Virus record (IMG/VR): IMGVR_UViG_3300003873_000003
Location: 32,001 to 96,000 of that record
DNA length: 64,000 bases
From: a virus
Direction: 5' to 3' (one strand)
Shown: positions 1 through 45,215 of the stretch, in pieces
Layout: each line of letters starts with the position of its first letter
Position numbering within the stretch: position 1 is the first letter of the stretch
Made by a program: the position numbers and the translations under genes
The notes under the pieces: generated by a model
What the model saw: the letters and a program-made list of their open reading frames with translations, nothing else
Database searches by the model: none
What the model was told of the DNA's origin: nothing

Positions 1-339
1 TACAATACGCTTCACACGACCCTGACACAGAGTATCAGCAATTTCTTTTAAGTCACCACTCAAGTCGTATGTCTTACACACATTGTAGGGGACAACATAG
101 ACTGTGCAATCTTTCTTTATGTTATCTTTGACACGGTTCATCATGTTGAAGAACAGCTTACCTACAGAACCACTAAACAACTCTTTACGTCCCATATCCT
201 CAGTTGGGATATGGTCAACGATAAACAGCACCTTGTAGTTTCCTTCACCTAAGTAAAAAGGTCGCACGGAAAAAGGGCTGCGGTTAAGCAGCCCCTTCAC
301 CTGACCTTCCGCTTTATCGGGAAGGTTGAAATACCTCAA
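1..339 (-). CDS. 5' part of a gene with an N-terminal uracil-DNA-glycosylase-like domain, probably a SPO1-type family A DNA polymerase (runs off the window; start uncertain)
   Basis: Open frame read by hand: ...GEGNYKVLFIVDHIPTEDMGRKELFSGSVGKLFFNMM...VYVVPYNVCK..., resembling the family-4 UDG-like pattern. The polymerase domain itself is not visible. Confidence 0.5.
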   Translation of the reverse strand, partial: MRYFNLPDKAEGQVKGLLNRSPFSVRPFYLGEGNYKVLFIVDHIPTEDMGRKELFSGSVGKLFFNMMNRVKDNIKKDCTVYVVPYNVCKTYDLSGDLKEIADTLCQGRVKRIV

Positions 340-340
340 C

Positions 341-907
341 TTATAGTACCTTTTCTAAGCGGCGCATACACAGACGAAGCCCCTTACGTAGGTAATCGCT
401 ATCTTCACCGAACACAAGGATATTTGCATCTGCGATGGTTTGCAGCAAAGGGCTGTGGGTTGCGATGATGAACTGCAAGTTAGGTTTACTCTCAATCAGG
501 CGAGCCAACTCAGCGATAGCAGAATAATCCAACCCAATTTCAGGTTCATCCATAACCACGGTTGTAGGGTCTGTAATGTTGTCCAACGCTCGCATATAAC
601 GCATAAGAGCTTCACCGTGAGATTCAGAATCGTTGGTAATCTTCTTGGATGCCTCACCATCAATGTTAGGCTTAGAGGTGATTGTTCCACTGGCGTGGTA
701 CAGAACAGGAACTTCGCTATCACGGATAAGTTGTGCAACAGGTACAGAATCAGCACCATTGACCACACGCATGATAGCTTCAATGGAACTGCTTTTTCCG
801 CTACCGTTGGGACCAACTAGAATGTTCACGCCTTCCATGAAGGTGACACTCGTGCAGCCACAGCGGCTAATGTAGTTATTGGCGACAAACTTTGCTCGTA
901 AAATCAT
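341..907 (-). CDS. ABC/AAA-type ATPase
   Basis: Walker A GPNGSGKSS, signature SHGE, Walker B VVMDEPE, H-loop ATHS; AAGGAG RBS before the ATG at 907. Confidence 0.85.
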   Translation of the reverse strand: MILRAKFVANNYISRCGCTSVTFMEGVNILVGPNGSGKSSSIEAIMRVVNGADSVPVAQLIRDSEVPVLYHASGTITSKPNIDGEASKKITNDSESHGEALMRYMRALDNITDPTTVVMDEPEIGLDYSAIAELARLIESKPNLQFIIATHSPLLQTIADANILVFGEDSDYLRKGLRLCMRRLEKVL

Positions 908-963
908 AGGTAAAATCTCCTTAAAATATAATGTGTTTCCGTCGGTCATTTACAGTTTTCAGT

Positions 964-1191
964 TCAAAATAAATTCCGTGCATAAGGTGGTAACTTGTCT
1001 TCGGGCTTCAATTCAGCTAGTGCCTGTACCCGAAGCTCCAGTATCCGAATAGAGTTGCTTACGTGCAACGGTACACTACTACCAAGTGCATCCAACCGAG
1101 CCTTGGTGTACAAAAGCGAATCAAGCTCTTTTTTAGTGGTCTCTATCACCGAAGCTAAATCACCCATCTGTAGCACCATCGGTATCCGCAC
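964..1191 (-). CDS. hypothetical protein
   Basis: ORF continuous with the operon, helical character. Confidence 0.5.
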   Translation of the reverse strand: MRIPMVLQMGDLASVIETTKKELDSLLYTKARLDALGSSVPLHVSNSIRILELRVQALAELKPEDKLPPYARNLF

Positions 1192-1636
1192 GGGAGTGAC
1201 CCGATGAGTCCATAGCGGTAAATACGTTTAATTCACCACGCCGCACCCCCAGCGTGGCACTTAGGGAAGTTAATGTTGGTAGCCCCTGATACGTGGTAGC
1301 CCCTGATACAGTATCCACATGCAGACTTTCTTTTTCGTCTTCATTACCATGCGTGTCATGTTTAGGAATAGGTGTGCCGCATGAACGGAGGCGGTACACT
1401 TCATCAATACAGTTCAGCAATGAATCTTGGTATATCCGCAAAGACCTCCGCAACGACTCAAAGCTATGAATCAGAGCAGCGTCAGGGGCAAAGCCTGACT
1501 CGGATAGACTCTCGACATACCCATCTAAGTGAGCTAGGTAGTCCCAAGCCTCCGCCTGTTTCTCATACAGACTAGCCTTCATCTCTCCCCAGAATGCTCC
1601 ATCTATGGTTTCATTTGCGTGTGCATCATCAGTCAT
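1160..1636 (-). CDS. hypothetical protein
   Basis: 4-nt overlap with the upstream gene, AAGGAG RBS. Confidence 0.65.
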   Translation of the reverse strand: MTDDAHANETIDGAFWGEMKASLYEKQAEAWDYLAHLDGYVESLSESGFAPDAALIHSFESLRRSLRIYQDSLLNCIDEVYRLRSCGTPIPKHDTHGNEDEKESLHVDTVSGATTYQGLPTLTSLSATLGVRRGELNVFTAMDSSGHSRADTDGATDG

Positions 1637-2646
1637 AGTAACTCCTTATTGTTGGTAGGTGATGGTACTGAAAGTTGGGTTGTGAGCCCTGCACCTTTAT
1701 AGAAAGAGAAGCAAGGCTTGCTATAGAAACCCCAACTCTTCTTCCACCCATTATCGTAAGACAACGGCTCTATGCGTCTTCCTTCCGCTACAGCAAAGCA
1801 AGATTGTGTTATGTAACCATTAACAGATTTATGACGCTTATGTCGAGTCCCTGACATGAACATCGTAAGCGAGTGCTTATTGCCAATCAAGATAACAACG
1901 GCAGCAAGCTCGTTTGTGTGCCTATCTGTAACACACAAAGCGGAAACCTCGTAGGAGCAACCCTTATCAAGCAGAGCCGACACTAAAGCATCAACATCAG
2001 GGACTGCATACTGCTCGAACCTGTAAGCGTTATCACCAAAACGCTCTTTCTGCATTTCTTTAACTGCCTCAATGTGGTACAAGCTGATAGGGGAAACTTC
2101 ATAGTAATACTTCTTGTTTAACCGCTTCAAACTATTTCGGATACGCCCACGTTGTTTGTGGTTACACGCATACTGCAAGTGGGACTCCCAATCCATTTCC
2201 GAGTAGAAATGGTCAGACGAGTATTTCACAGTAACTGGTCCCGTATCCGTGTGTAGCACCATAGTGTCACCGACATTTGGCAGATTGAAGTTCGTATTCA
2301 AGAACGGTTGGTTATCAATCACCGAGCCGCTAGGAAGACTATCAGCAATAACACTCATCCAGTCCTTACTTGAGAAAGGGTGTGCAGCACTTGGGGTCAT
2401 AGAGGACAACGAAAAGTCGCTGTCAATCTCAACGTAGTTAGAATACTCACCATTGTAGCACCCATACCTGCAAAGAGGCAAGTAAACAACATCACTCACC
2501 ACTGCACATGGAGGTTCCGCAAGATGCTTATGCCAATGCTCCGTCCACTCTAGGGTGGCTTGCACAGACGGCTTCTCGATACAAGATACCCTCCTCTCCC
2601 TATCACGGATAAACTCGCTTCCAGTAATCATATCAGGCTGGGACAT
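1633..2646 (-). CDS. GNAT-fold acyl/aminoacyl transferase (Acetyltransf_6/FemAB-like)
   Basis: KQRGRIRNSLKRL helix, LAAVVILI...TMFMSG strands and C-terminal GWKKSWG resemble this family; RBS before the ATG at 2646. Confidence 0.6.
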   Translation of the reverse strand: MSQPDMITGSEFIRDRERRVSCIEKPSVQATLEWTEHWHKHLAEPPCAVVSDVVYLPLCRYGCYNGEYSNYVEIDSDFSLSSMTPSAAHPFSSKDWMSVIADSLPSGSVIDNQPFLNTNFNLPNVGDTMVLHTDTGPVTVKYSSDHFYSEMDWESHLQYACNHKQRGRIRNSLKRLNKKYYYEVSPISLYHIEAVKEMQKERFGDNAYRFEQYAVPDVDALVSALLDKGCSYEVSALCVTDRHTNELAAVVILIGNKHSLTMFMSGTRHKRHKSVNGYITQSCFAVAEGRRIEPLSYDNGWKKSWGFYSKPCFSFYKGAGLTTQLSVPSPTNNKELL

Positions 2647-3715
2647 GTCTGACCTCTCCTTCATAGTTAATAAGCGTATTAGTATCACCATCGGTTATAA
2701 TCACCCTAGCAGGCTCTAGGGGTATCTTGCCAATGCCACCTTCACCATCCACAACAAACGTAGGCATGGCAACACCGCTGATATACCCCCTAAGTTGGCA
2801 TACGAGTGTTTGTGCATCTTGCAGACTGACTTCAAACTGTGCGTTACCTAACTCACGGTCACAGGTGTACACGTAGTAAGGTCGAATACCGATAGACACA
2901 AGGTGCATAAACAGGGTCTCAAGGGTATGGGCGTTATCGTTGATGCCTTTCAACAGCACAGTCTGACTTCCTAGTGTTACCCCTGCGTCACGCAGATTGT
3001 TTACACCATCAACAAATATCGGTGTAATCTCTTTCGGATGGTTCACATGGATATTCAAAAGCACGTTATAATCACGCAGCAACTTACAGAATGCTGGGGT
3101 TAGTCGGTAAGGATTCTGTACAGGCATCCGTGAGCTGATACGAAGAATCTTGATGTGAGGTAGTGCCCGTATCTCTTTGAAGAGGTGTTCAAGAACGGTG
3201 TCGCTCATCAACAAGGGGTCTCCGCCTGACAGAAGCACATCATTTATTTCTGTATGCTTTTGCAGGTACTCAAGTGAAGCCATGAGTTGACCTTTCGATA
3301 TGTAATCATCCTCCCCAGATACCATACGTTTGCGAGTACAGAATCGGCAGTACGCAGCGCAAGTGTTCTGAACAAGGAAAAGGACACGCTTAGGGTAACG
3401 GTGGATAATGCTCGTACCTGCGATTCGATGACGTTCCTCATTGAGAGGGTCTTCCTGCTCAACATCAGACACATCTAGCTCTTTCTTCGAGTAGAGGTAC
3501 TGCTTACGGATAGGACAGTCGGGGTCATCAGGCGACATTAAACTTAGCAGATAAGGTGTTACACCTACCTTGAGTAACCCATGTGGGGGTACATCATCAG
3601 GCACATTCGATAAGTATATGCGCAATCCATCCATACTTCGCACACTACGCTTTATCTGACTGCGCCAACTAACGTCATCAAAGCACATAGGGTCTGTAGC
3701 CATCGTTTTACTCAT
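2633..3715 (-). CDS. kamA: lysine 2,3-aminomutase (KamA-family radical SAM/PLP enzyme)
   Basis: DPL.EE, HRYPKRVL, CAAYCRFC (CxxxCxxC), SGGDPL, HVNHPKE, QTVLLKGIND, PYYVYTCD, VVDGEGGIGK (PLP lysine). Confidence 0.93.
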   Translation of the reverse strand: MSKTMATDPMCFDDVSWRSQIKRSVRSMDGLRIYLSNVPDDVPPHGLLKVGVTPYLLSLMSPDDPDCPIRKQYLYSKKELDVSDVEQEDPLNEERHRIAGTSIIHRYPKRVLFLVQNTCAAYCRFCTRKRMVSGEDDYISKGQLMASLEYLQKHTEINDVLLSGGDPLLMSDTVLEHLFKEIRALPHIKILRISSRMPVQNPYRLTPAFCKLLRDYNVLLNIHVNHPKEITPIFVDGVNNLRDAGVTLGSQTVLLKGINDNAHTLETLFMHLVSIGIRPYYVYTCDRELGNAQFEVSLQDAQTLVCQLRGYISGVAMPTFVVDGEGGIGKIPLEPARVIITDGDTNTLINYEGEVRHVPA

Positions 3716-4817
3716 GGGATGAACCTTGGATGAACAGCACCAGCTCATGTGGTTCGAGAACACCACCCCAAGCTTTAGAGAAAGAAGGTGAGATAGCTTC
3801 GGTCAAGTCCTCACCCACCATAGGTACGAACTCGGGGCGAGGTAAGCCTAGGTGAGCAGAGCGACCATCTTCGTGTGCATCATTATTCGTATCAGCGGCG
3901 AACCCCATGTGAACCATAGGAAACCCATCGTACAGAGCTTCGTGGTCACGCAAAGCACGTTGCATGGAAGATACGAGTTCCCCTGTAGTCCACGGTCGAA
4001 TCTTGACAGCCTCATCCAACTTAATGTCAGCTACAACACGAGTTTCACCGTCAGACTTAGAGTGGGACTCTTCCACAACGACATTCTTATGATAAAGCTC
4101 GATGCTGTTATTGAATAGGTTACGATGTGTGACAACTGTGTACGAAACATTCAGAGTAGAACTGGAGCGTACAATGCCATCAGCGATTAAATCCTTACCG
4201 ATGTCAGTATCTGTACTCAAAGGTGTCCAGCAGTCAGACTCGTACTTATCGTGGAAGGGTGTGTACACACCGAAAGGAACGATGTTAAACTGGGCATAAT
4301 AGTCATCACCGTGCTTAACAGCATTATTAAGCAGGTTGAGGAAAAAGTCATCCATTTCAGATTCGGTCTGCAAGGCATTCAAGCTGTAATAGTACCCCAA
4401 CACTAAGTTTGTGCCTTCGGGTATAGTACAGTGAGTGGCATCGGCTGTTTCTAACCCTGCACCGTTGTCATTCAGTTCGGTTATCGTATAAGAGCTTACA
4501 TCGACTGTGGGGGAGAAGTATCCAGTGAGTTTGGAATAGTAATCCTTCCCACCAAACAACTCAACAACGTTCGCAGAGGACAGGGACTCAATGAAGGGTT
4601 TGCCAAGCTCATAAGCAGTAGTTCGCTCAAAGTCAGCACTATGGGGGAACGTTATGCCTTCAAACTCACCGTTCAACACAGTACGCAATGTTTCTCGAAG
4701 AAGGAGAGTGTCGTACAAACGAGCATGTGGGTCAGGGGCAGTAACAGCCTCGTACACGGCGGCATGGTGGTAAAGAGATTTTGCATAGTAACATAACTTG
4801 CGGTCTTTTGATTTCAT
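3708..4817 (-). CDS. putative class I SAM-dependent methyltransferase
   Basis: Motif I-like VVELFGG, ADAT, LVLGYYYSLNAL, beta-rich cap insertion and RPWTTGELVSSM, as in small-molecule N-methyltransferases; divergent. Confidence 0.55.
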   Translation of the reverse strand: MKSKDRKLCYYAKSLYHHAAVYEAVTAPDPHARLYDTLLLRETLRTVLNGEFEGITFPHSADFERTTAYELGKPFIESLSSANVVELFGGKDYYSKLTGYFSPTVDVSSYTITELNDNGAGLETADATHCTIPEGTNLVLGYYYSLNALQTESEMDDFFLNLLNNAVKHGDDYYAQFNIVPFGVYTPFHDKYESDCWTPLSTDTDIGKDLIADGIVRSSSTLNVSYTVVTHRNLFNNSIELYHKNVVVEESHSKSDGETRVVADIKLDEAVKIRPWTTGELVSSMQRALRDHEALYDGFPMVHMGFAADTNNDAHEDGRSAHLGLPRPEFVPMVGEDLTEAISPSFSKAWGGVLEPHELVLFIQGSSHE

Positions 4818-4900
4818 TATTTTGTAACTCCCAATATAGGATAAACAGTGGATGTAACGTAGGTCAATCGGCTACACCCACCATTTACAGTTTTGCACTC

Positions 4901-6568
4901 TTATGGCTTAGGGTTATGACCTGTAGCCCTATCCATAATACGCTCTAACATCTCACTATAGAACCCCTCAAATAAAGTACCGTTGTAAACACAGTCAGAA
5001 CAAGCAGGCTCGATGTATTCTTGGATGCGTGGGGAATTAGGTCGCATTTCAAACACTGTACTAAGAACGGCAACACGCCCACCATGCGAAAAGAACCCAT
5101 CTGATACAACATCATAGTACACGTCAATATACCGCATATCAACAGTGCCTTGCTGTAAGAACGCTCCAGTCGGTGTTCCTCTGCGTGTATCAGGGTAGTG
5201 AACTGCCTTGGGTGTGCGGAAACGGTCGGCAGCAAACGAAAGGTCGATAAGCGATAACCCAAAACTTTCAGGGTATAGCAGCGGTACTATCGTGTTGCGG
5301 GGGTCTGACCAAGAGTAAGTGTTCGGTGCGTTGTATGAATAGAAGTAGTCTAGGAACTCAAAAGGGCTTGGGTGTAAGATAAGACTGTCTTCTGTATCAG
5401 CACACTCCGAAGGCGCAGGCTCCATCTCACCAGCTTGCATTGCAATCGTTGCGAAGTTGCTATTCGCAAGTCGAGTCATCCACTCGATACCATAAGTAAT
5501 AGAATCATCGTGACCCATAATAAACGTCAAGTCTATGACCCCAGTGTATTCAGGTGCATTGTCAGCCAACCACGCACCTAACCGACCTGCAATTACCTCG
5601 GGGTACATGAACCGCTTGAGGCGTTCAGATGTAAGAGACACATGGTAAGTAGCAACATCACCAAACTTGGGACCGCAGCCGCCATACTGATTGTCATGGA
5701 ACAAACGATTATCCTCAATCACCAACACGCCATTCCCCACGTGACCTTGAGCAACAAAATAGGAAAGGCTGAACTCAATACCTTCGATAAAGTCTTGGAT
5801 GATGATGGGGTAAGGTAGACCCTTGCCGTTTTCGGGACGCAAAGTCAAAGCACCAATAGACTGACCACGAAGTTCCTTTACGTACACCTTTTTCGAGGTG
5901 TCATCAACGGCGGAGCATACACCGCACCAATCTTCCTCATCTTGAACCGTGACCGTTTTAGGTGTAGCGATACCGAGAGAACGGAACGCCGCATCGCCAA
6001 CACTACGAACTAACTCTAAGTCCCGTGCGGCTTTCGGTGTTCTGGGGAACAGGTTGTACGGCAAGGGTTTACCCTTCGCAACCTTGGAATTGGCTACGCC
6101 TTTATAGATGATGTCATCCAACCATTGATAGAACGGTTTAGTCTGCGCCTGCTGTGCAACTTGTTTGGAACGGGGCTTAGTACGACCACCTTTCGTTGCA
6201 CGGATGTCATCCATAGTTCTTGCGTGCTGGATACCACAGGCAGCAGGGTACACCACAGTCCCACTACCATTCTTCTCGGTAACAAAGTGATGTACGATAC
6301 GCAGCGTAGCTTCCAACGAAAAGGCGTACTCCGACCCACCAATGGAGTGAGGAATCAAGCAGGCAGTTGGATGGTCTGCAAAATAATCAGAGGCAGCGTC
6401 CCTGTTACCGATAACCAGTGTGTTAAACAAAGAAGGTTCAAAGGCTGTACTATCCCTCACCTGCTCCATAGACAAAGAAAAACGAGGTACAAGCAGATTG
6501 AAAGATTTGGTCTTGGGGTCACCGACCGTAATAACACGGTAGTCGTCAATAGAAAATTCGTCACTCAT
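4901..6568 (-). CDS. PurD-like ATP-grasp amide ligase
   Basis: VYVK, IIIQDFIEGIEFS, GPKFGD (PurD GPNTGG), YTGVIDL, IEWMTR (PurD EFNxR), GGRV. Confidence 0.75.
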   Translation of the reverse strand: MSDEFSIDDYRVITVGDPKTKSFNLLVPRFSLSMEQVRDSTAFEPSLFNTLVIGNRDAASDYFADHPTACLIPHSIGGSEYAFSLEATLRIVHHFVTEKNGSGTVVYPAACGIQHARTMDDIRATKGGRTKPRSKQVAQQAQTKPFYQWLDDIIYKGVANSKVAKGKPLPYNLFPRTPKAARDLELVRSVGDAAFRSLGIATPKTVTVQDEEDWCGVCSAVDDTSKKVYVKELRGQSIGALTLRPENGKGLPYPIIIQDFIEGIEFSLSYFVAQGHVGNGVLVIEDNRLFHDNQYGGCGPKFGDVATYHVSLTSERLKRFMYPEVIAGRLGAWLADNAPEYTGVIDLTFIMGHDDSITYGIEWMTRLANSNFATIAMQAGEMEPAPSECADTEDSLILHPSPFEFLDYFYSYNAPNTYSWSDPRNTIVPLLYPESFGLSLIDLSFAADRFRTPKAVHYPDTRRGTPTGAFLQQGTVDMRYIDVYYDVVSDGFFSHGGRVAVLSTVFEMRPNSPRIQEYIEPACSDCVYNGTLFEGFYSEMLERIMDRATGHNPKP

Positions 6569-7278
6569 AGCTCAACTCCTAGTTCTTTGAAAAGTTCATC
6601 CACTTCGATACAAATGGGGCATTCATGGCAAGGTTCAGCATACTCGCAGCTTTGAGTACGCGCAAAGTCAATACCCATTGAAATGCCAAACTGAATAACC
6701 TCACGCTTCGTTAGGGACTCAAGCGGTGCTGTGACCAAGAAAGGCTCTGCGAAGGATGAAAAGATAGTGTCGTTCACCTGTGTATGGATTTGGCGGCAAG
6801 CATCCCGACCACGCATTAGGTTCAAGTCTGTGTTCATACCCAATTCAGATTGGTTGGATTGGAACCCCGTAGCTAAGCGGTTACAGCCGTTATAAGAGGC
6901 AACCGTGGCTGCCATGAGCATGAACAAAGGGTTGCGCCCATTAAGGAATCCCATCTCGGTGTCGGTCAGTACACAACAGTCATCACGATGGACACCTTTC
7001 TTTTGCAACTCGTAGTCTTCTTGGAAAGTAGGAACAGAGGTCAACTTACTGTAGTCCCAATCAATAACGTGCGTCTTAACTGTGCAACCGCAGTAATTTG
7101 ACAGGAAGTTTGCGTGCCAGTTCATATTGCGTTTCATGGTTTCAAAGTTCGCATTGCCTCCATTCACTAGGATTAACATGCCTAGTGAGCCAGCCTCTGC
7201 CAACATGTACGCAGCTACAGTGCTGTCGATACCTCCACTGTAAAGTACGGCTTGTTTCTTCTCAATCGGTTTTGTCAT
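6565..7278 (-). CDS. divergent QueC-like PP-loop ATPase (second paralog)
   Basis: SGGIDST PP-loop, GRNPLF, PLESLTKREVI, TQSC...CHECPIC Zn site; lacks YPDCR; AAGGAG RBS before 7278. Confidence 0.85.
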   Translation of the reverse strand: MTKPIEKKQAVLYSGGIDSTVAAYMLAEAGSLGMLILVNGGNANFETMKRNMNWHANFLSNYCGCTVKTHVIDWDYSKLTSVPTFQEDYELQKKGVHRDDCCVLTDTEMGFLNGRNPLFMLMAATVASYNGCNRLATGFQSNQSELGMNTDLNLMRGRDACRQIHTQVNDTIFSSFAEPFLVTAPLESLTKREVIQFGISMGIDFARTQSCEYAEPCHECPICIEVDELFKELGVEL

Positions 7279-7312
7279 AACATCTCCTTGTTTTGTAGTC
7301 ACAATTTACACT

Positions 7313-7993
7313 TTACCCATCTTCATACAGCGTAGGGTCAACAATGCCTGCCAACGAAAAGGCTAAACGGCGTTCCGTACAAGTACCGCACTTACCACAG
7401 TGGGTCACCCCACCTTTATAGCAACTGTATGTTTCTGCGAACGGTACACCCAAGCTTGCACCGATAGATACAATTTCGTTCTTAGTCAACCCACCGAAGG
7501 GGCTTACAACTTCAACACCACCGTATGTGCCTAATGAAGCAGCCTTACTCATAGCAGTTGTGAACTCGGTACGGCAATCGGGGTAGATGGCGTTGTCTCC
7601 TTTATGCGAGGCTAGGTAAACATGGTTAAGCTTACGGGCTTCTGCGATAGCTACAGCCACAGACAACATCACACCGTTACGGAAAGGAACCACAGTGCTA
7701 CGCATCGTAGCATCCTCGTAGTGACCTTCAGGGACGTCACCTGCACCCGAAATCAAGGAACTCAGCTCACCTAAGCTGCATTGGTTGAAGACGTTATGCA
7801 AAGGTATGACGAGGTGCTCCGTGTTAGTGATAGAGCAGTTACGAGAGGCACATTCGAGTTCTCGCTCATTGTGATTTGAACCGTAGTCGAACGACACCGC
7901 TAGAGCAGGCTTCATTTGGTACAACAGAGTGGTACTATCTAGACCCCCACTGTAGATTAAGATACCAGTATTTTCGAGAATGTTAGGTTTCAT
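7313..7993 (-). CDS. queC: 7-cyano-7-deazaguanine (preQ0) synthase
   Basis: SGGLDST, FDYG, TVVPFRNGVMLS, YPDCR, TYSCYKG..HCGKCGTC.ER, all canonical. Confidence 0.95.
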   Translation of the reverse strand: MKPNILENTGILIYSGGLDSTTLLYQMKPALAVSFDYGSNHNERELECASRNCSITNTEHLVIPLHNVFNQCSLGELSSLISGAGDVPEGHYEDATMRSTVVPFRNGVMLSVAVAIAEARKLNHVYLASHKGDNAIYPDCRTEFTTAMSKAASLGTYGGVEVVSPFGGLTKNEIVSIGASLGVPFAETYSCYKGGVTHCGKCGTCTERRLAFSLAGIVDPTLYEDG

Positions 7994-9138
7994 TTTGAAT
8001 CTCCATTTGAATCATTTACTTTCAGAATACACCGCTTTAAGGAGTACAAACGGTCAGGGTCAAGCAGGTCAAGATAGTCAGGATAAAACTTCACAGGATT
8101 TACATATTGTACTTCGGGCTTATACCCATCAGGCAAGTCACGTAAGGCGGCTTCAATAGCTTGATTGTAATAGTCACAGTAAGAAACAATATGCACAGGT
8201 TTATGTTTGATGATATACTTCCTAACCTGCTGCATAGCACGCCAGTCATTAGGCACGCCACTATCGTACATAGGTGCTACACCCCAGAGGTCTTGAGGTA
8301 CGATACCTAGAACACCAGTAACGATAGCAATAGTCCAAGTATCAATCCAGTCCTCATCAGGGGCTTCACAAGAAGCGAGTGTATCCATGACGGCTTTGTG
8401 CATAGGGGAAGGGTACGGCTTATCCGCAGCACATGGAACGAGTAGCAGATTCGAGGTTGGATTTGAAGGGCTATAATCATCTAAGTCCTCCAAGTAGTCC
8501 AGTACAGTTGGTCGGTGGAACCCTCCGTTGTTAGTCACCACGAAAGACTTATCATGCAACCCTACACACCAATGAGGCTGAAAGCCTTGCACATCAAGCT
8601 TCCACAAGAAATCCGTAAGCTCTGGGCGCATAGAGGCAGACCACTCGACAGCCGAGCGTGTAACCTCCAAATCAGTGAAAGTCAACGCCACGTCCTCCTC
8701 AAATTCTACAGTAGGTAACTGCACTTCAACCCCCATGTAACGCAAAAGCATACACCAAGAAGAGGGAGGATACTTCGCAATGACTTTAGGTGCATCTTTT
8801 AAGTCGCCCGTACATTGGGTCGGTAAGAGAGGAGCGAGCGTAGAAACGTACCCATCCTCATCCATGTTAAAGTCCCGCCATGTAAAGTTTGGGTTGGCAA
8901 GCTGGAACAGCTTTTTGAACAACGTCATGTAGCCTTGATAGGTGTCCTCATACGACTCGCCTTTATTAGGCGCACTCAAGTAAATGGTGTAAGTCTCTTG
9001 TGGGTCTTCGTCAGACAGACCTAGTGTGTGGTTACAAGGGTAACCAAACAGCTCACCGTGGATACAGGGGACTCCACTGACCTTTACGTGTGAGCTAAGG
9101 TCTTCGGGTGTAGGTGACGGTAGTTCTTGTTCATCCAT
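7990..9138 (-). CDS. archaeosine synthase ArcS-like (DUF5591-type) protein with an N-terminal extension
   Basis: LLLVPCAADKPYPSPMH, VTGVLGIVPQDL, PMYD match the ArcS PCxxxKPYxxSxxH...GxVP...YD core; 4-nt overlap with queC. Confidence 0.75.
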   Translation of the reverse strand: MDEQELPSPTPEDLSSHVKVSGVPCIHGELFGYPCNHTLGLSDEDPQETYTIYLSAPNKGESYEDTYQGYMTLFKKLFQLANPNFTWRDFNMDEDGYVSTLAPLLPTQCTGDLKDAPKVIAKYPPSSWCMLLRYMGVEVQLPTVEFEEDVALTFTDLEVTRSAVEWSASMRPELTDFLWKLDVQGFQPHWCVGLHDKSFVVTNNGGFHRPTVLDYLEDLDDYSPSNPTSNLLLVPCAADKPYPSPMHKAVMDTLASCEAPDEDWIDTWTIAIVTGVLGIVPQDLWGVAPMYDSGVPNDWRAMQQVRKYIIKHKPVHIVSYCDYYNQAIEAALRDLPDGYKPEVQYVNPVKFYPDYLDLLDPDRLYSLKRCILKVNDSNGDSK

Positions 9139-9195
9139 TGGTTTCTCTCCTCTTAATCATGCGGGTCTAATAACAATTCACTGCACTTGCGGTAC

Positions 9196-9203
9196 ATTTA
9201 CAG
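9196..9203 (-). promoter_or_regulatory. CTGTAAAT putative phage promoter heading the modification operon
   Basis: The same motif recurs in coding orientation upstream of more than 10 genes. Confidence 0.55.
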
Positions 9204-9226
9204 TTTATACGTTGAAAAAAATTAAC

Positions 9227-9268
9227 AAAAAAAAGCCGCCCTACCCTCACTTGGGTAAGACGGCTTTC
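9227..9268 (-). terminator. rho-independent terminator
   Basis: Hairpin (AAAGCCG...CGGCTTT) followed by a T-run on the - strand, after the 9284..9715 gene. Confidence 0.7.
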
Positions 9269-9283
9269 TAAGAGGTAAGCTAC

Positions 9284-9715
9284 TTAGCGAAGCTTACGGG
9301 ACTTCGGTTGCTTAGAAGCGTGACCTTGCTTCTTAGGTGCATCGGGTGCATCAGGTGCATCGGGTGCATCAGGTGCATCGGGTACATCAGAATTTACCCC
9401 TTCTTGACCGTCAACACCAGTATCCTGTGTTGAACCCTCGGTAGTAGACTCGGATTGGGCTTCCTTCCGAGACTTAACCAACGCAGTCAAAGCGTCCAAC
9501 GCATCTTGAGTAAGATGTGCAACACGAGGTAAGACAAACCGAATAGATGCAGCTAAGTAAGAATCCTGCGATACCTTACCCCACACGCCATCTAACTTGC
9601 CTAATGGGTACTCACCCAAGCTCTTGAGAGCCTTCTGACCTTCAAGGAACATGGTGTTTACTTCATGTTCCGAATTGCCTTCGTTATCAATAATACCTTT
9701 TCCTTCTTCACTCAT
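9284..9715 (-). CDS. hypothetical protein with (PDA)n repeat and basic tail
   Basis: AAGGAGG RBS; 9-nt tandem repeat encoding PDAPDAPDAPDAPDA. Confidence 0.75.
   Translation of the reverse strand: MSEEGKGIIDNEGNSEHEVNTMFLEGQKALKSLGEYPLGKLDGVWGKVSQDSYLAASIRFVLPRVAHLTQDALDALTALVKSRKEAQSESTTEGSTQDTGVDGQEGVNSDVPDAPDAPDAPDAPDAPKKQGHASKQPKSRKLR
9336..9389. repeat. 9-nt tandem repeat (ggtgcatcr), about 6 copies
   Basis: Seen directly in the sequence. Confidence 0.9.
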
Positions 9716-9739
9716 AATAGCCTCCTTTTAGCTACTTCG

Positions 9740-12700
9740 TTATTTGCTACGAACATGGATTGCCCGTAGTTCGTCCAACACGCCCTCTTTGTTGATGATA
9801 CCAACGTCACGAGAGATTGACTCCAGAACCTGTTTAGCTTCCGCAGGTGTCTTCAAGAACAAGAACTTGCGTGATGGCTCTAAACGGAACTTAACGCCGT
9901 TCACATGCAATGAAGGCAAGTGAACCGCACTAGGGGCACGATTAGATACAACAATATACAGCTCACCATCTTGAACCATTGGGTATGGCAACAACGTACC
10001 TTTAGGGATAGGTTTCTTCTTCAAGTTCCAGAAGTTCACAATATCCTTCCAGTTAGACCGTGAGATGTCACTGATACGCTTGTTACGTGGCAGCATCTCC
10101 AAGAAGTCCTCAAGCTTGTCCATGCGAGATTGAGGTATGTTGAACGTGATACCTTTACGCTTGCCATTGGATTTCTTAGACTTCTTAACTGTAGGTGCCA
10201 CAGTGCTATCAGCAGGAATACCTGCTAAGAAAGCATCCAACAATTCATCAAGCTGCTTACGCTTAGTAATGTGAGCAGCCCAATAAGCACCAACATCCTT
10301 GAAGCCATGCTTGGATAGAACGCCTGCATCAGGGTCATCACTAAGAACAGACAACACTAGATGCTCATTGAAGCTTCCTGCATACAACTCGACACCTTCG
10401 TCCTCTTCGTCAATCTCCTCCCCGAATGGTGAGGCAGAAGACTTAGCCTTGCCTTTAGCCTTAACCTTAGCTTTAGGCTTGCGAGTCTTACGTGGCTCGG
10501 CAGGCTCATCAGCAGATTCATCCTCGCCGTCAGCCCAGCTATCAATGTCCTCATCAGTAAACCCATCGGACTCGTCATCGTCTTCTTCGATTTCAAACTC
10601 GTCATCGTCTTCTTCGATTTCAAACTCGCCGTCATCGTCTTCTTCAAGTTCTTCTTCAAAGCCATCGAACATGGATTTGCCTGATACACTCAACATGTCG
10701 TCCCACAAGCTTTCGCCTTCCTCACTAACTTCATCCTCGAAGCGGAAGAATACGCTAGTAATAGGGAACGATACTTTGCGTTTGCCACCAGCAAGCATAA
10801 CTTGTAGGCGGGTCTTACCAACCTTAGTTACCATGCCAGCACCAAGCTCTGTAAGCACAGTCTCACCATACAGTGAGTTCTCATCACCTTCATGGCGTGT
10901 AAGAAACTCGCCTACAGTAACCAACCCTAGGGCTTCGGCGTTCGGCAGGCTTTCAGGTGACATGCCGGGGATAAACGGCTGGTCATCGAGTTCCTTGTAG
11001 TCCTTCGGTGCAGGAAGAGCCACCACAGGAATCATCTCGGGGAACTCTTTGCGTTTAGCTTCAAACTCCCTATCCTCAAACTCCTTGATGCCTTGGTAAC
11101 CATCGAGGTACTTAGCTAAGGATTCTTGAGTCCTAAATTGGTCAAAACTCTGGGTATTCATGGTGATAGTACCAAGAGACTCAAACGCATTGCTGTCATA
11201 GTAAGGGTTGTCAGCTTCCGTAAAGTTCAGGTTACTGATAGTCTTACTAATCAAGCGGGCTGTCTTAGCCATCTCCATACTACCTTCGATAACGAGCCAG
11301 TCAAAGTAGATAACCTTGCCTGCATCGAAGTTATTAACATCAGGGCGGAAGATACGAGACAATGCTTGGTCGTGGTCTCCTGGAGCCCATACAGACTGCA
11401 CACGAATCAACCGAGTACAGAACTGGAAGTTGAAGCCAGTGTTAAGGGTCTTCTCCGTTGCAAACAAAACAACCTTGTTAGGGTCAGTGTAAAAAGAAGA
11501 CAAATCAGTTTTGTGCTTACCATGGTAAAGGATAGCTTTATCGCCATGACGGGATGCTTCCATCAAGTGTTCCACAGCAGATACGTTTGTTGTGAACACA
11601 AGAATCTTACCTTTTGAAGCTTCTGGGTCTGCCAAATGAGCATCAATCAGGTCATCCACCATCTTCACTTTAGGGCTGATTAAGTCTTCGCCTTCCAACA
11701 ACTCACGACCACCATCGGAAGTGCTTGGGTCCACTACAAACTGCTCTAGGTCAGTCAATGAGTTCATCAACTTGGATTCAAGCATCTTCATAGAGGCAGC
11801 ATCTTTCTTGCGGAGTAACGCCTTGTAAGCGGGGTCAGATTTAACCTTCTCCAACGCTTCTTGCAACATCAAGTCATGCGTTGTTTGTTGGTTAGGGCTG
11901 AACTTACCAAAGTGCATCTTCTCAACCAACGTAGGTAACATAAACGCCCAGTCACTACGTTTCGCACTCAAAGAGGCAGCGTATGGTGCTAAGGTATCCT
12001 GAATAGCTTTAGCCGACTGAGGGGTCAACGCACCATTCTCATTCATAAACTTAGCTTTGAAGTTATTGACGTTATAGAAGATAGAGCCGTCAATAAGGTT
12101 CCCAAGACCTACCAAGTCAGCAACAGTGTTAGACACCAAAGTACCTGATGCGAACCGCTTGTACTTAGCCCCCATGATAATACGGTTAGCCGCAATACTA
12201 CGTTGGCTAGTAGGGTTCTTCAAGTTGTGGCTTTCATCCATAACAACTAAATCACACCCCAACTCTGCTATCTTGATAGCATTCAAGTAAAGGTCAACAT
12301 GCTCACCGCCGAACGCAACGGAGGACTTGTTAGACATACTCAAGAAGTTGTACGACACAAGGAAGATAGTGTTACGAGGTGCAGCCTTCGCCATCTCGAA
12401 TAGGTCACGACCTTCACGCTCCCAAAGGTTCACTGTATCAGAGTGGAAAGGGAAGAAGTTGATATTACCATGTGTGAATTTGCGAATCTCGCCTGCCCAT
12501 TGCGACAATAACTGCCCTGGAGCTAACAAGATAGGACGTTTCACACGACCTTCACTCATCATAGTCAAGATGTCCAAAATAGACATACATGTTTTACCAC
12601 CCCCAGGCTGTACAGACATCATAGCCGCAGGTGAGATACCGTCATCGTCAAGCTTGTGCAAAATCTTGGCTTGGTGAGGGAACACTTTAGTCCCAGGAGC

Positions 12701-24945: not shown

Positions 24946-27030
24946 TCACACTTTGTTTAAGTGTGCCTCCCCTCCACTACGAGTAACACGGTACACGTCA
25001 CCTAAGCCCATATCAAAAGGCGATACGACCACTACATTCACCAACTTAGACAAGCTAGGTAAGAACTCGGAGATGAACAGCGACTTGCTGCTATCATCCA
25101 TACCGCTCTCAATCTCATCGAAGATGACGGTATCGACTCTGCTTGTCTGGGGCATGATGCTTATAAGGGAGATGTAAAGCAAGCAAATAAACTGCCTGCG
25201 CTCTGCGCCACTAAGCATACGGACATCTGACACTAGACCCGAAGGTCGTGTAACAACAATCTGCAAAGAGGAAGGGTTGACGATAATCTCAAACTTAAAG
25301 GATTCTGCGAATAGCAGGCTTCTGTAGGTATTAAGCTTCTTAGTACAGACAGCAGCCAAAGCCCGAAGCGTATGTATCTTGATACCTGTGTTTGAGTAAG
25401 CATCTGCTAAGGCAGAGTAACACACTAAGTCATCAAGCTCCTCTTCAAGTTCATCAAGCTCTAACTTCAATTCCGCCTGCTCTTCCAAGTCTTTCTCATA
25501 GAGAGCCCGACTGACCTCATACCCGTGCAGCTCGTTTGACAACGATTTTATACGTTTGCCTAGCTTACCAAGCCTCACCGTATCAGGGTTAGTCTCAGGC
25601 AGGGCAACCCCATAAGCGTCTCGGTAGTCCTCGATGTTAAAATCGAGTGGTGTTGGCTTGGTTGGTTTCGGTACGGGCTTGACTATAGCTCTACGCAACC
25701 AAGAGCGGTGTTCGTCTATCTCATCCTCGATGTCGTTTAATCGTGATAACATAGGCTTAATATCAACCTTCCCTAGAGTCTTCTCCAGCCTAGCCCTCTC
25801 CTGCACGGATTTCAAGGAATCGTTGAACTCGGTGCGCTTCAACAGCTCGGCTTTATACTTGGCGACCCTAGACTTGGACTTATCGTACAAGGCTTGGATG
25901 GAATCAGCATCTAGCTCCGAAGAGCAGGTAGGGCATACGCAAACACCGACAATACCCTCCAGAGAAGCTACAAGCTCAAGTGCTTGGGATAGCCTACCTT
26001 CAATCTCTGATACAGGTTTCGGTGACGCATCTGCACTTACCTTAACAGTTACCGTAGGGAGGCGAGCTATCTCTGCCTTCACAGACTTGTTACTGGCACT
26101 AATACGGCGTGCAGCACGAACCTCAACCTTCAAGTCAGCAAGCTCCGAGGTCAAGGCATCCAAAAGGTCTTGGCGTTCTTCTCGTGACATGGGGTCAGGC
26201 TTGTATGCCTTAAACTTCCTGTATGCCGCTGCATCTGCCTTATATGACTTTACAGCGGTGGCGTATGCAGAATAAGCGTCTAAAGCGGCTGTGTAGTCTG
26301 CCTTACTCAATGGTACTAGGGCTTTAGCCGAGGACGTTAACCTATCGTAGTTCTGTTGCTGAAAGGTTGTTTCAGCGCACAGCTTCTGCAAACGTTCGTA
26401 CTGCTTCCGATACTTACGGAGCTTCTCCACATCCGCTGACCTATCAGGGACTACCTCCACTTCCTTAATGCGGTCGTTAAGAGTCTCGAACCTGACTTTC
26501 TTTTTCTTCAACTCACGCACTTTAGCCAACATGGGTTTCTGCAAGTCAGCGTACTGCTCTAGGGGAAAAATCTCCTCGAACGCTACCAGTCGGTTAGCAT
26601 CAGTTCCGTTTAGAAACGGCGAGAAAAGCAAACTATTGATATAGAAGGTTGAGTAGAACATAGCAGGGGTTAATGGAAATATCTCTCTCACCATCTCCTT
26701 AGCATGTGACTTAGTGCGAACAGCTAAGTCCTTACCATCACGGTAAATCTTATAGCCCCCATCATAGATTATCTTATAACGGTGTTCATTCGTGAACTCG
26801 ACAGTAATAGTCCCTGTCTTCAACTTCGCTCTCGACACAGCAAGAGGGTGGTCTTGAAGCACGGTACAGAGTGCATAGAACATAGCAGACTTGCCTGCCC
26901 CATTACTGCTGTGTGGTTTCCTGTCTTTATTGAGACCTATCACGGAAGTTAAAGGGGCGTTACCGAACTGAAAGGTGGTATCGACATGGTGCGCACAACC
27001 CTCTAGTCGAATACTGTGCATCTCAATCAT
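24946..27030 (-). CDS. SbcC/Rad50/gp46-like recombination ATPase
   Basis: GLNKD..SNGAGKS, coiled coil with CPTC Zn hook, LSGAE, IFDEIE. Confidence 0.92.
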   Translation of the reverse strand: MIEMHSIRLEGCAHHVDTTFQFGNAPLTSVIGLNKDRKPHSSNGAGKSAMFYALCTVLQDHPLAVSRAKLKTGTITVEFTNEHRYKIIYDGGYKIYRDGKDLAVRTKSHAKEMVREIFPLTPAMFYSTFYINSLLFSPFLNGTDANRLVAFEEIFPLEQYADLQKPMLAKVRELKKKKVRFETLNDRIKEVEVVPDRSADVEKLRKYRKQYERLQKLCAETTFQQQNYDRLTSSAKALVPLSKADYTAALDAYSAYATAVKSYKADAAAYRKFKAYKPDPMSREERQDLLDALTSELADLKVEVRAARRISASNKSVKAEIARLPTVTVKVSADASPKPVSEIEGRLSQALELVASLEGIVGVCVCPTCSSELDADSIQALYDKSKSRVAKYKAELLKRTEFNDSLKSVQERARLEKTLGKVDIKPMLSRLNDIEDEIDEHRSWLRRAIVKPVPKPTKPTPLDFNIEDYRDAYGVALPETNPDTVRLGKLGKRIKSLSNELHGYEVSRALYEKDLEEQAELKLELDELEEELDDLVCYSALADAYSNTGIKIHTLRALAAVCTKKLNTYRSLLFAESFKFEIIVNPSSLQIVVTRPSGLVSDVRMLSGAERRQFICLLYISLISIMPQTSRVDTVIFDEIESGMDDSSKSLFISEFLPSLSKLVNVVVVSPFDMGLGDVYRVTRSGGEAHLNKV

Positions 27031-43565: not shown

Positions 43566-45215
43566 ATGTCATATCATTTCGTACATGCAGGCATCTTCCC
43601 TTATAAGAAGAGTGGGATTGCTGTCTACACAAAGTTTGGCAAGCATCATGTCAACAATCTTCGGGTGAAGCATAACCACGAGTACACTTGGATTACAGCC
43701 CCCGACCGTGAGCTTATCATTGTAAGCGATGCTCATAAGTCAGATTGCTTCCGCCCTCAAGGGTGTAACTTCGATACCATGCAAATCTTTGGTCCCACTA
43801 TACCGAGTTTTGATGGGTATGACGTTGATTACATGATGACTAATTACACGACACATATCGGTAAAGAGCATCTATCCCCTATGCACCGTAAGCAAGGGTT
43901 TCGTGACCACACCCACCCTCTAGCCCCAGACAGGGCAACTTGGATGGCTGATTCGGGTGGGTTTCAGTTCAGTACAGGGGTGCTATCTTTCGTTGACCCT
44001 ATCAACATGGTTAAGTGGTATAACGACAATGCCGATATTGGTATGGTATTGGATATGCCTGTTTCTAGGGAACATGGGCTTGCAACCTTCAAGCGTGCTG
44101 CACATACCCAAGCTCGGAATACTGCGGCTATGGTAGCGCATAAAGCCGAGCATTTGGATTTGATGAATATCATTCATGGAAGCACTGTGGAGGATAGGGC
44201 TTACTACCGCCGTGTCGTTGAGCGTGACGATATAACGAAGCTTGCGGTGGCTGGGGACTACAATGGCACTGTGCTTGACGTTATCAACAACCTGCTATCA
44301 CTTGTTAATGATACAGGGTCTCACTATGACCACTATCATTTACTTGGCATCTTCAACCCTCGCATTACCGCCTTGCTTGCTAAGGTTGCTTCCGAGGGGA
44401 TTGTTGATACCCTAACCTCTGATAGTAGCACTGCGATTCAAGCCGCTACCGTGCGTGAGTTCTATGTGATAAGCAAGAACGAGGGGCTGCATCGTACGCC
44501 TGTTGGTCACAAGTATATCCATCCGAACATATCCAACCGATTGCCTTGTTCATGTCCCGTCTGCTCCACACTGAAATATACAGACGTTTTCACAACTGTA
44601 AATTCAGGTAGCTGTATTGCCTTGCTTGCTGTGCATAATATGTTCGCAATGTCCACCTATATGAGTATGCTGGACACCTATGCCAACACCCTTTCCACCG
44701 AGGAATACCGTTCCTATTTATCTTCCACGATTGCTAAGAGGGGTAGCGGTGGGCAGGAGATGCTTCATTGCATTGACTTTATTGAGTCTTACAAAGAAGA
44801 AGGGCTAGAAGCTGCACAGCGTAAGTTCCAATTTTACTTGGATGGTAATTTAGGTTCTGCTAAACCTTTGCCTTCTATGTTAGGTGGTGCAGTGGAGGAA
44901 GAGGAACCCAAGGAAGAATTAAGCCTAGATTCCGATGATGACACCCCTGCAGCAGGCAAAGAAGAATACCATGCGCACTTACAGAAAGTTTTAGGTAACT
45001 TTGACAGATGGGCGGAAGGCGAAGACCTATCTCATGTTGATGGGTTAGATATGCGTAGGTCCGAGAAGTCCAAAGAGTACAAAGAACGTAAAGCAGCTCG
45101 TGATAGAGGCGAACATCAGGAGCCTGTGAAGAAGAAGCAGTTATTGGGTATGAGTACCAAAGCTAAACAGCGAGCCAAAGGGACGAGGAGGTTGCGAGCC
45201 CGACCTAAGGAGTAA
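43566..45215 (+). CDS. dpdA: TGT-fold transglycosylase, DpdA-like (7-deazaguanine insertion into DNA)
   Basis: MADSGGFQ, LDMP, IIHG, HLLG, SDSST, LPCSCPVC...HN Zn site; queC and ArcS-like genes in the same window. Confidence 0.75.
   Translation: MSYHFVHAGIFPYKKSGIAVYTKFGKHHVNNLRVKHNHEYTWITAPDRELIIVSDAHKSDCFRPQGCNFDTMQIFGPTIPSFDGYDVDYMMTNYTTHIGKEHLSPMHRKQGFRDHTHPLAPDRATWMADSGGFQFSTGVLSFVDPINMVKWYNDNADIGMVLDMPVSREHGLATFKRAAHTQARNTAAMVAHKAEHLDLMNIIHGSTVEDRAYYRRVVERDDITKLAVAGDYNGTVLDVINNLLSLVNDTGSHYDHYHLLGIFNPRITALLAKVASEGIVDTLTSDSSTAIQAATVREFYVISKNEGLHRTPVGHKYIHPNISNRLPCSCPVCSTLKYTDVFTTVNSGSCIALLAVHNMFAMSTYMSMLDTYANTLSTEEYRSYLSSTIAKRGSGGQEMLHCIDFIESYKEEGLEAAQRKFQFYLDGNLGSAKPLPSMLGGAVEEEEPKEELSLDSDDDTPAAGKEEYHAHLQKVLGNFDRWAEGEDLSHVDGLDMRRSEKSKEYKERKAARDRGEHQEPVKKKQLLGMSTKAKQRAKGTRRLRARPKE

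Follow-up and report, generated by a model that had tools for sequence, protein, structure and literature searches.

The phage 7-deazaguanine systems set out in the main text of Cui et al. (2023, PMC10516641) couple the transglycosylase DpdA to FolE, QueD, QueE and QueC, with ArcS2, Gat-QueC, QueF and DpdL, DpdM and DpdN as further components. Phage DNA is known to contain eight 7-deazaguanine derivatives, none in that described set bears an amino acid, and in the same main text (PMC10516641) the words 'lysine' and 'ATP-grasp' do not occur and 'radical SAM' (SAM, S-adenosylmethionine) occurs once. Here we analyse a gene cluster in a 64,000-nucleotide stretch of viral DNA (the window), bases 32001-96000 of the 118,360-bp IMG/VR record IMGVR_UViG_3300003873_000003 (CheckV completeness 45%), in which genes of this kind are joined by a KamA-family aminomutase and a PurD-like ATP-grasp ligase. 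Judged from its genes, the cluster is best explained as a set of tailoring steps added to the phage 7-deazaguanine pathway. We consider it rather probable that its product is a 7-deazaguanine bearing an amino acid – probably beta-lysine – that would be placed in the phage DNA, and we hold any particular biosynthetic scheme with less confidence than this. The product, the DNA target and an anti-restriction role are what we infer from the identities of the genes.

The likeness to the DpdA systems, as the main text of PMC10516641 presents them, extends to a TGT-fold transglycosylase (TGT, tRNA-guanine transglycosylase), FolE, a canonical QueC, a DUF5591-only ArcS-like protein and a setting among replication genes; in those systems ArcS2 works with DpdA2 on DNA. 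The cluster differs in adding KamA, the ligase, a second and remodelled QueC (hereafter QueC') and two orphan tailoring-type proteins, and no characterised phages stand among the matches of its TGT-like and ArcS-like clades. Our literature search, which considered main texts, returned no paper in which phage 7-deazaguanine genes are connected with KamA or with a PurD-like ligase. Some of the phages considered below may be among the phage clusters listed in Supplementary Data S1 of PMC10516641; a survey of jumbo phages (PMC7824862) treats deazaguanine systems in general terms only.

The closest biochemical precedent appears, by analogy, to be RoyL, a divergent QueC from Streptomyces described as the deazapurine amide bond synthetase of roseomycin A (bioRxiv 10.64898/2026.04.15.718813). 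According to the accessible text of that preprint, RoyL couples AMP-CDG (CDG, 7-carboxy-7-deazaguanine) to L-lysine, L-ornithine or L-diaminobutyrate, its amine pocket is formed by Tyr41, His45 and Glu48, and RoyL-type clusters also contain ATP-grasp and SAM methyltransferase genes; dpdA-bearing clusters were screened out, and phages are never mentioned in that text. In common with these, the phage cluster has a divergent QueC whose neighbours include an ATP-grasp and a methyltransferase-type gene, and lysine is the likely amine partner; the likeness of QueC' to RoyL is drawn from the shared QueC fold and the published description and not sequence to sequence. It departs from the RoyL clusters in its linkage to a DNA/RNA transglycosylase and to KamA, the latter suggesting beta-lysine.

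A further comparison is with archaeal ArcS, which, as described in the accessible text of PMC11298593, transfers L-lysine to the nitrile of preQ0 and in T. kodakarensis even to the preQ0 nucleoside. As in the ArcS-RaSEA pair presented there, a DUF5591 catalytic core is encoded alongside a radical SAM enzyme. Unlike in that pair, the radical SAM partner belongs to the KamA family, and the ArcS-like protein has neither a PUA nor a TGT-like N-terminal domain and scores 45.3 bits against a cut-off of 440 for the NCBIfam ArcS equivalog NF040592 (25.6 against 600 for a second such model). RaSEA-type chemistry was considered and rejected, KamA being the sole radical SAM match in the record (45% complete). 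AblA and AblB synthesise N-epsilon-acetyl-beta-lysine, and EpmB and EpmA effect the beta-lysylation of EF-P. These pairs resemble the phage arrangement in that a KamA-family maker of beta-lysine is followed by a user of it, and in Vibrio phages a GNAT gene follows KamA. The window differs in that KamA falls under both the AblA and the EpmB cut-offs and stands among QueC-type genes, and in that the protein encoded downstream is FemAB-like, not a small GNAT.

Enzymes of the cluster

The cluster consists of eight co-directional, head-to-tail open reading frames (ORFs) on the minus strand, running from 9138 down to 1160, with 4-nt overlaps at three junctions (7990-7993, 6565-6568 and 1633-1636). 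The first-pass annotation had described the first seven, all of which lie where it placed them; the eighth, which it did not list, overlaps the last of these by 4 nt. Together with the distant transglycosylase gene the features are as follows.

7990..9138, minus strand: ArcS-like protein, 382 aa, DUF5591 core (PF17884, 34.2 bits against a cut-off of 26)
7313..7993, minus strand: canonical QueC (preQ0 synthase), 226 aa (TIGR00364, 162.1 bits against 150.3; PF06508, 176.2 bits)
6565..7302, minus strand: QueC', divergent QueC paralog, 245 aa as listed (PF06508, 64.1 bits)
4901..6568, minus strand: PurD-like ATP-grasp ligase, 555 aa, 4-nt overlap with QueC' (profile match to PurD in the PDB)
3708..4817, minus strand: orphan 369-aa protein, probable class I SAM-methyltransferase fold (ESM Atlas look-alikes)
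2633..3766, minus strand: KamA-family radical SAM / pyridoxal phosphate (PLP) aminomutase, 377 aa (TIGR00238, 279.9 bits against 199.2)
1633..2691, minus strand: 352-aa protein, probable Acetyltransf_6 / FemAB-like double-GNAT fold (ESM Atlas look-alikes)
1160..1636, minus strand: 158-aa acidic protein, no family match, 4-nt overlap with the 352-aa gene
43566..45215, plus strand: TGT-fold, DpdA-like transglycosylase, 549 aa (PF01702, 29.6 bits against 26.3)

Profile scores uphold the earlier identities, and their order, for the ArcS-like, QueC, QueC', PurD-like and KamA genes; the methyltransferase and GNAT calls, drawn from ESM Atlas look-alikes, are probable and stand as leads.

Among equivalog models KamA scores best against the lysine 2,3-aminomutase AblA (332.4 bits, under the cut-off of 525.4), and it is likewise under the cut-offs for arginine 2,3-aminomutase (300.3 against 600), glutamate 2,3-aminomutase (290.9 against 650) and EpmB (228.7 against 369.3). 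Aligned to the Clostridium lysine 2,3-aminomutase 2a5h (E=9.5e-83), it keeps the CxxxCxxC motif (C136/C140/C143) together with R145, D303, D340 and K347, which align with R134, D293, D330 and K337 of 2a5h. We take R134 to bind the carboxylate, D293 and D330 – a lysine-specific acidic pair – to bind the epsilon-ammonium group, and K337 to be the PLP lysine, roles that reportedly go back to the structure paper of 2005. The lysine-type residues, D303 and D340 included, are invariant in 3/3 phage homologs, and their retention relative to 2a5h supports the earlier suggestion that KamA would be a maker of beta-lysine.

PurD joins an amino-acid carboxylate to an amine by the acyl-phosphate chemistry of ATP-grasp enzymes. 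The 555-aa ligase taken alone matches no Pfam or NCBIfam family; when a five-sequence profile was compared with the PDB, the nine best matches were all PurD (best 2yw2, E=2.1e-14), profile positions 187-441 aligning to residues 45-320 of 2yw2, that is, to the ATP-grasp core only. In addition, the homolog in a second IMG/VR phage, G001, passes PF01071 GARS_A (31.5 bits against 27). What the ligase shares with PurD (2yw2, 5vev, 1gso) is thus ATP-grasp A-domain homology at profile level, over a core of about residues 180-440; unlike PurD, it has unmatched N- and C-terminal flanks, no GDPE, no Pfam match and no purine operon. Its sequence suggests that 'PurD-like ATP-grasp' is right for the core of a protein that is not itself a PurD. 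The family is sparsely represented: a homologous-protein search gave 0 matches, and a full HMMER scan found 5 proteins in 1.84 billion representatives, 2 of them the ligase's own fragments.

QueC' scores 42.3 bits against the TIGR00364 QueC equivalog, under the cut-off of 150.3. In alignment it retains the PP-loop SGGIDS and the C-terminal (zinc) Cys cluster and carries a longer, different segment – an insertion – in place of the canonical YPDCR region, and it reads as a true QueC-fold protein whose substrate region is altered. Its true start is likely the ATG at 7278, which lies behind an AAGGAG site. A scan of genome contigs with QueC' yielded 4 loci, 0 of them with a PurD-like gene; the two whose matches are full-length look closer to canonical QueC.

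In the ArcS-like protein, VPCAADKPYPSPMH corresponds to the PC-x3-KPY part of the ArcS C1 motif, given as PC-x3-KPY-x2-S-x2-H in the main text of PMC10516641. The stretch runs PC-AAD-KPY and then P-S-P-M-H, one residue shorter than the motif as quoted. All members of the ArcS-like clade (3/3) have VPCA[AP]DKPYP[SA]PMH in common, the C1 Ser being Ala in two Vibrio homologs; in the phage database the clade comprises Vibrio phages GR7B and GR11A only.

The DpdA/TGT-like gene reported earlier at 43566 is indeed there, 34 kb from the cluster and set among sigma-like, RecA-like and primase genes. A six-sequence profile has a single match in the PDB, the archaeal tRNA-guanine transglycosylase (ArcTGT) 1iq8 (E=6.9e-10), and D129 of DSGGFQ and the zinc-site residues C328/C330/C333/H357 (CxCxxC...H) are kept in 6/6 sequences. 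Against the cut-offs for tRNA TGT the protein scores 27.5 versus 47.6 and 32.8 versus 350, and Pfam detects the TGT domain alone, with no PUA domain. At their C-terminal end the clade's TGT/DpdA-like proteins carry a lysine-rich tail (45000-45215 here), which may bind nucleic acid.

Related phages and the conserved core

A tblastn search with the ligase led to Vibrio phage vB_VcorM_GR11A and Pseudomonas putida phage vB_PpuM-Peetri. In GR11A and its sibling GR7B a single run between DNA ligase and topoisomerase II holds the cluster: ArcS-like (37% identity), QueC, QueC' (37%), two hypothetical genes, a 686/697-aa protein identified as PurD-like by comparison in GR11A only, KamA (44%) and a GNAT of 155 aa (PF00583). 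The run in Peetri comprises two divergent QueC-like genes, a 694-aa PurD-like protein, a 411-aa KamA and several hypothetical genes, and eight sibling P. putida phages carry KamA and TGT-like genes; QueC, deazaguanine and queuosine go unmentioned in the main text of the Peetri preprint. In G001 (209 kb, 93% complete) the genes lie within 11 kb in the order FolE, a DUF7487 protein, TGT-like, QueC-like, hypothetical, second QueC-like, hypothetical, PurD-like, two hypothetical genes and KamA.

The G001 locus holds two further observations. Three paralogous hypothetical proteins of 300-336 aa (locus 3664-4620, 5473-6483 and 7905-8816) are encoded by genes interspersed among its QueC-like and PurD-like genes, with one homolog in Peetri (locus 3773-4792) and no family match, and the gene after KamA (locus 11120-12535) contains an intein splicing domain, PF14890.

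The TGT-like protein of the window has a homolog in 3/3 cluster-bearing relatives searched, FolE and QueD-like matches each occur in 4/4 relatives, and DUF5591 is found in 2/4, both of them Vibrio phages. By the five-sequence profile a PurD-like gene is present in 3/5 records searched. QueF (PF14489) has 0 matches in 5/5 records, and a phage-encoded preQ1-based route was rejected on this count. In the phage database KamA matches fall in 19 records, 11 of which – nine P. putida and two Vibrio phages – have the same TGT-like clade. Xanthomonas phage PhiXhv-15 and phage NCTB, related jumbo phages, also have this TGT-like clade and carry one QueC-type gene each; neither has a PurD-like gene in the profile search, nor a KamA match. 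In the cultured relatives the cluster sits in DNA-replication modules.

Searches of viral contigs for related loci with the ligase, with a single KamA sequence or with PurD-like alignments gave none, and a KamA alignment gave three loci, one carrying the cluster. One contig of an Aminicenantes metagenome-assembled genome encodes a canonical QueC on one strand and, about 5 kb away on the other, a KamA homolog, probably by coincidence. PhiXhv-15 encodes a 507-aa QueC fusion of the Gat-QueC type (record 106764-108892), annotated as a glutamine-fructose-6-phosphate aminotransferase, with a PIG-L-like deacetylase and a glycosyltransferase encoded after it; the set may represent a different, sugar-type decoration of the same base family.

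As far as sequence comparison goes, the conserved core appears to be the TGT-like gene, FolE, two QueC-type genes, the PurD-like ligase and KamA, with the ArcS-like, the small or FemAB-like GNAT and the methyltransferase-like genes apparently lineage-specific. The expectation that these genes would occur together in related phages is accordingly borne out for KamA and the ligase with QueC-type and TGT-like genes, and not for the methyltransferase-like and 352-aa GNAT-like proteins, for which the related clusters gave no detectable counterparts.

Putative transcription units, orphan proteins and genomic setting

The following features flank or divide the cluster.

9230..9269, minus strand: strong terminator-like hairpin, 17-pair stem and T run, ending the upstream 143-aa gene at the 5' cluster edge
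9196..9203, minus strand: promoter-like motif CTGTAAAT, A-rich 5' flank, about 58 nt before the ArcS-like ATG
7304..7311, minus strand: promoter-like motif GTGTAAAT, between QueC and QueC'
4883..4890, minus strand: promoter-like motif CTGTAAAT, in the 83-nt gap before the 369-aa gene
341-949, minus strand: SMC/ABC-type ATPase, 202 aa (AAA_21 and SMC_N matches)
1-339, minus strand: family-A DNA polymerase (PolA), 975 aa, continuing past the window start; its 5' end lies 1 nt after the end of the ATPase gene

The motif [C/G]TGTAAAT (STGTAAAT) had been noted at 9196, 7304 and 4883. It is present at each, with a further copy at 948, and amounts to 17 copies in the window as compared with 5.38 +/- 2.10 expected (100 shuffles, of which 0/100 reach 17). 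In 17/17 copies its orientation follows the strand of the local genes (minus strand: 948, 4883, 7304, 9196, 16818, 18582, 23456, 28332 and 30499; plus strand: 32816, 34153, 39470, 39992, 41195, 42591, 44596 and 46594). Most copies have an A-rich 5' flank, and mostly they lie 25-60 nt 5' of a ribosome-binding site and ATG. The motif behaves like a phage promoter-like element, a window-wide signal rather than one specific to the cluster, and probably serves a phage-encoded sigma-like factor as its promoter; a sigma-like gene with a weak sigma-70 match lies at 45750-46634. As promoter-like sites, the copies at 9196, 7304 and 4883 would split the cluster into three units: ArcS-like and QueC; QueC' and the ligase; and the methyltransferase-like gene through the 158-aa gene. 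The last of these genes is probably co-translated, since it overlaps the preceding one by 4 nt.

The 369-aa and 352-aa proteins have no Pfam or NCBIfam match even at E<=10. The ESM Atlas look-alikes of the 369-aa protein are class I methyltransferases (feature score 0.90; TM-score 0.50-0.54 by query), and, read by eye, the protein has a degenerate glycine motif, VVELFGGKD, in which two usual glycines are replaced; a homolog search returned only the protein itself. For the 352-aa protein, whose probable start is M16 (2646), the look-alikes are PF13480 clusters (features 0.95, 176 shared; TM-score 0.63-0.70), and a homolog search gave one real homolog, at 77%. The acylating GNAT of the first-pass annotation therefore looks like a FemAB/Acetyltransf_6 double-GNAT, for which aminoacyl transfer is possible as well as acyl transfer. 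Comparison of the orphan proteins with the hypothetical proteins of related clusters by hhalign was not significant (probabilities 1.8, 0.1 and 0.2).

The source of the window is a large tailed (jumbo) phage, of which the record is a fragment. PHROG matches in the window include a portal protein, a clamp loader, a Dda-like helicase and an SbcC-like protein; no tRNA genes (0) were found in the 64 kb. Megablast of 1000-9800 against the phage database gave no match, and hence no close relative there. On its 3' side the cluster is followed by the 202-aa ATPase, then PolA and then FolE, the last at record coordinates 26208-26864, about 5 kb beyond the window start. The cluster lies between the helicase and the PolA/FolE side, and is therefore placed inside the replication module. 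As to the ATPase itself, the motif copy at 948-955 and a ribosome-binding site suggest a true start near 907.

The proposed pathway, its alternatives and its meaning

A central issue is how the amino acid might be attached to the base. Three attachment chemistries are encoded: QueC-type adenylation of CDG, the ATP-grasp acyl phosphate, and ArcS-type addition of an amine to the preQ0 nitrile. By sequence, QueC' and the PurD-like ligase would constitute two ATP-dependent amide-forming scaffolds, and the route through this pair is favoured because both are conserved with KamA and the ArcS-like protein is not. The first-pass annotation had looked to ArcS-type transfer of lysine onto preQ0; with the ArcS-like protein absent from Peetri and G001, this is not the best-supported attachment step, and a RoyL-like QueC' acting with the ligase fits the core better.

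In the pathway that we propose, FolE and canonical QueC would supply the preQ0 branch and KamA would convert L-lysine to beta-lysine. QueC' would act in the manner of RoyL, adenylating CDG and coupling an amino group of (beta-)lysine instead of ammonia to give a lysyl-amide 7-deazaguanine. The ligase would then form a second amide bond via an acyl phosphate, either extending the side chain or joining the carboxylate of beta-lysine to an amine on the base. In the window phage and the Vibrio phages the ArcS-like enzyme might provide a parallel or alternative amidine step on preQ0, and the methyltransferase-fold and FemAB-like proteins would add lineage-specific trimmings (methyl in the one case, acyl or aminoacyl in the other). 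The DpdA-like enzyme would swap guanine in phage DNA for the decorated base or its precursor, and the bulky, probably cationic base would shield the DNA from host nucleases. Stated in full – a peptidyl 7-deazaguanine replaces guanine, with KamA-derived beta-lysine amide-linked to the 7-carboxyl by the RoyL-like QueC', extended by the ligase, and here methylated and (amino)acylated – this scheme is one that we put forward tentatively, as a serious possibility somewhat short of probable.

Several observations weigh against an amino-acid-bearing base, or against parts of the route to it. QueD (PF01242) has 0 matches in the 118-kb record, and besides KamA that record contains no second radical SAM enzyme that might serve as QueE, the record being 45% complete. 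Neither Peetri nor G001 has a DUF5591 protein, and their best PF06508 scores, 66.7 and 82 bits, reveal no high-scoring canonical QueC. The ligase family has Met at the Asn of the PurD E-x-N-x-R and has not kept the GDPE stretch; because of the former its chemistry may differ from that of PurD. AlphaFold confidence (pLDDT) is too low for use in both the ligase (35.5) and the 352-aa protein (36.9), and in related clusters no counterpart of the 369-aa or of the 352-aa protein could be detected. Two huge uncultured phages, LR756500 and LR756501 (462 kb and 735 kb), carry KamA-family genes of 36-37% identity with no QueC-like, PurD-like or ArcS-like neighbour, so that phage KamA must have at least one other use, and 0/80 metagenomic KamA loci have another cluster gene (tblastn, ligase profile).

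The strongest alternative, which we nonetheless regard as unlikely, is that two unrelated modules lie side by side, one making known bases (dPreQ0, dG+ via ArcS2, dADG via QueC*) and the other concerned with beta-lysine, KamA, the ligase and the GNAT making a free beta-lysine amide or acetyl-beta-lysine (AblA/AblB-like) or modifying a protein. The main text of PMC10516641 offers precedent for the first module, in that ArcS2 of phage nt-1 gives dG+ and QueC* is the proposed ADG synthase. For the second, AblA is the best-scoring model for KamA, the small PF00583 GNAT after KamA in the Vibrio phages reproduces the AblA/AblB arrangement, and a promoter-like motif stands between the KamA unit and the QueC units. 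The ligase argues against such a scheme: its gene overlaps that of QueC' by 4 nt, it co-travels with KamA and the second QueC in four phage lineages, it is missing jointly with KamA from two relatives (PhiXhv-15 and NCTB), and by profile it accompanies KamA at 0/80 metagenomic loci. In G001, moreover, cluster genes and TGT-like gene form one run.

That the pathway is real but its product goes the way of archaeosine and queuosine, into RNA (tRNA of the host or the phage), seems to us very improbable. The sole PDB match of the TGT-like profile is an archaeal tRNA enzyme, and ArcS is natively a tRNA enzyme (PMC11298593, accessible text); set against these are the scores of the TGT-like protein, far under the tRNA TGT cut-offs, the detection by Pfam of a TGT domain with no PUA, and the finding that DNA is the substrate of the phage TGT paralogs tested to date (PMC10516641, main text). 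The position of the TGT-like gene among sigma-like, RecA-like and primase genes, that of the cluster between helicase and PolA, and the count of 0 tRNA genes in the window also point away from RNA.

We find it just as hard to credit that the phage uses the product in infection as a free, roseomycin-like peptidyl-7-deazapurine metabolite and that the distant TGT-like gene has no connection with it. The Streptomyces RoyL-type clusters, with their divergent QueC, ATP-grasp and SAM methyltransferase, do yield free metabolites (bioRxiv 10.64898/2026.04.15.718813, accessible text), and 34 kb separate the TGT-like gene from the cluster in the window; yet the same TGT-like clade recurs in 3/3 cluster-bearing relatives searched, the gene adjoins the cluster in G001, and in all cultured relatives the cluster lies in DNA-replication modules. 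That the ORFs are chance occurrences is rejected on their family scores and their conservation across phages.

What is new here is a KamA with lysine-type residues within such a cluster, the existence of cultured carriers, the contrast between related phages that have and have not these genes, and the RoyL precedent. Since cultured phages that infect Vibrio coralliilyticus and Pseudomonas putida KT2440 carry the core, the prediction is directly testable with existing isolates. If true, a lysine- or beta-lysine-bearing base would constitute a new chemical class of DNA hypermodification and, among the 7-deazapurines of any DNA, the first to bear an amino acid. With it, radical-SAM aminomutase chemistry would reach into the synthesis of DNA bases, and the DNA armour of phages would be tied to the peptidyl-deazapurine chemistry of the RoyL type in Streptomyces, the base being a phage counterpart of the peptidyl-deazapurine antibiotics made there. 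Such bases matter for the evasion of restriction and CRISPR, and as handles for DNA chemistry.

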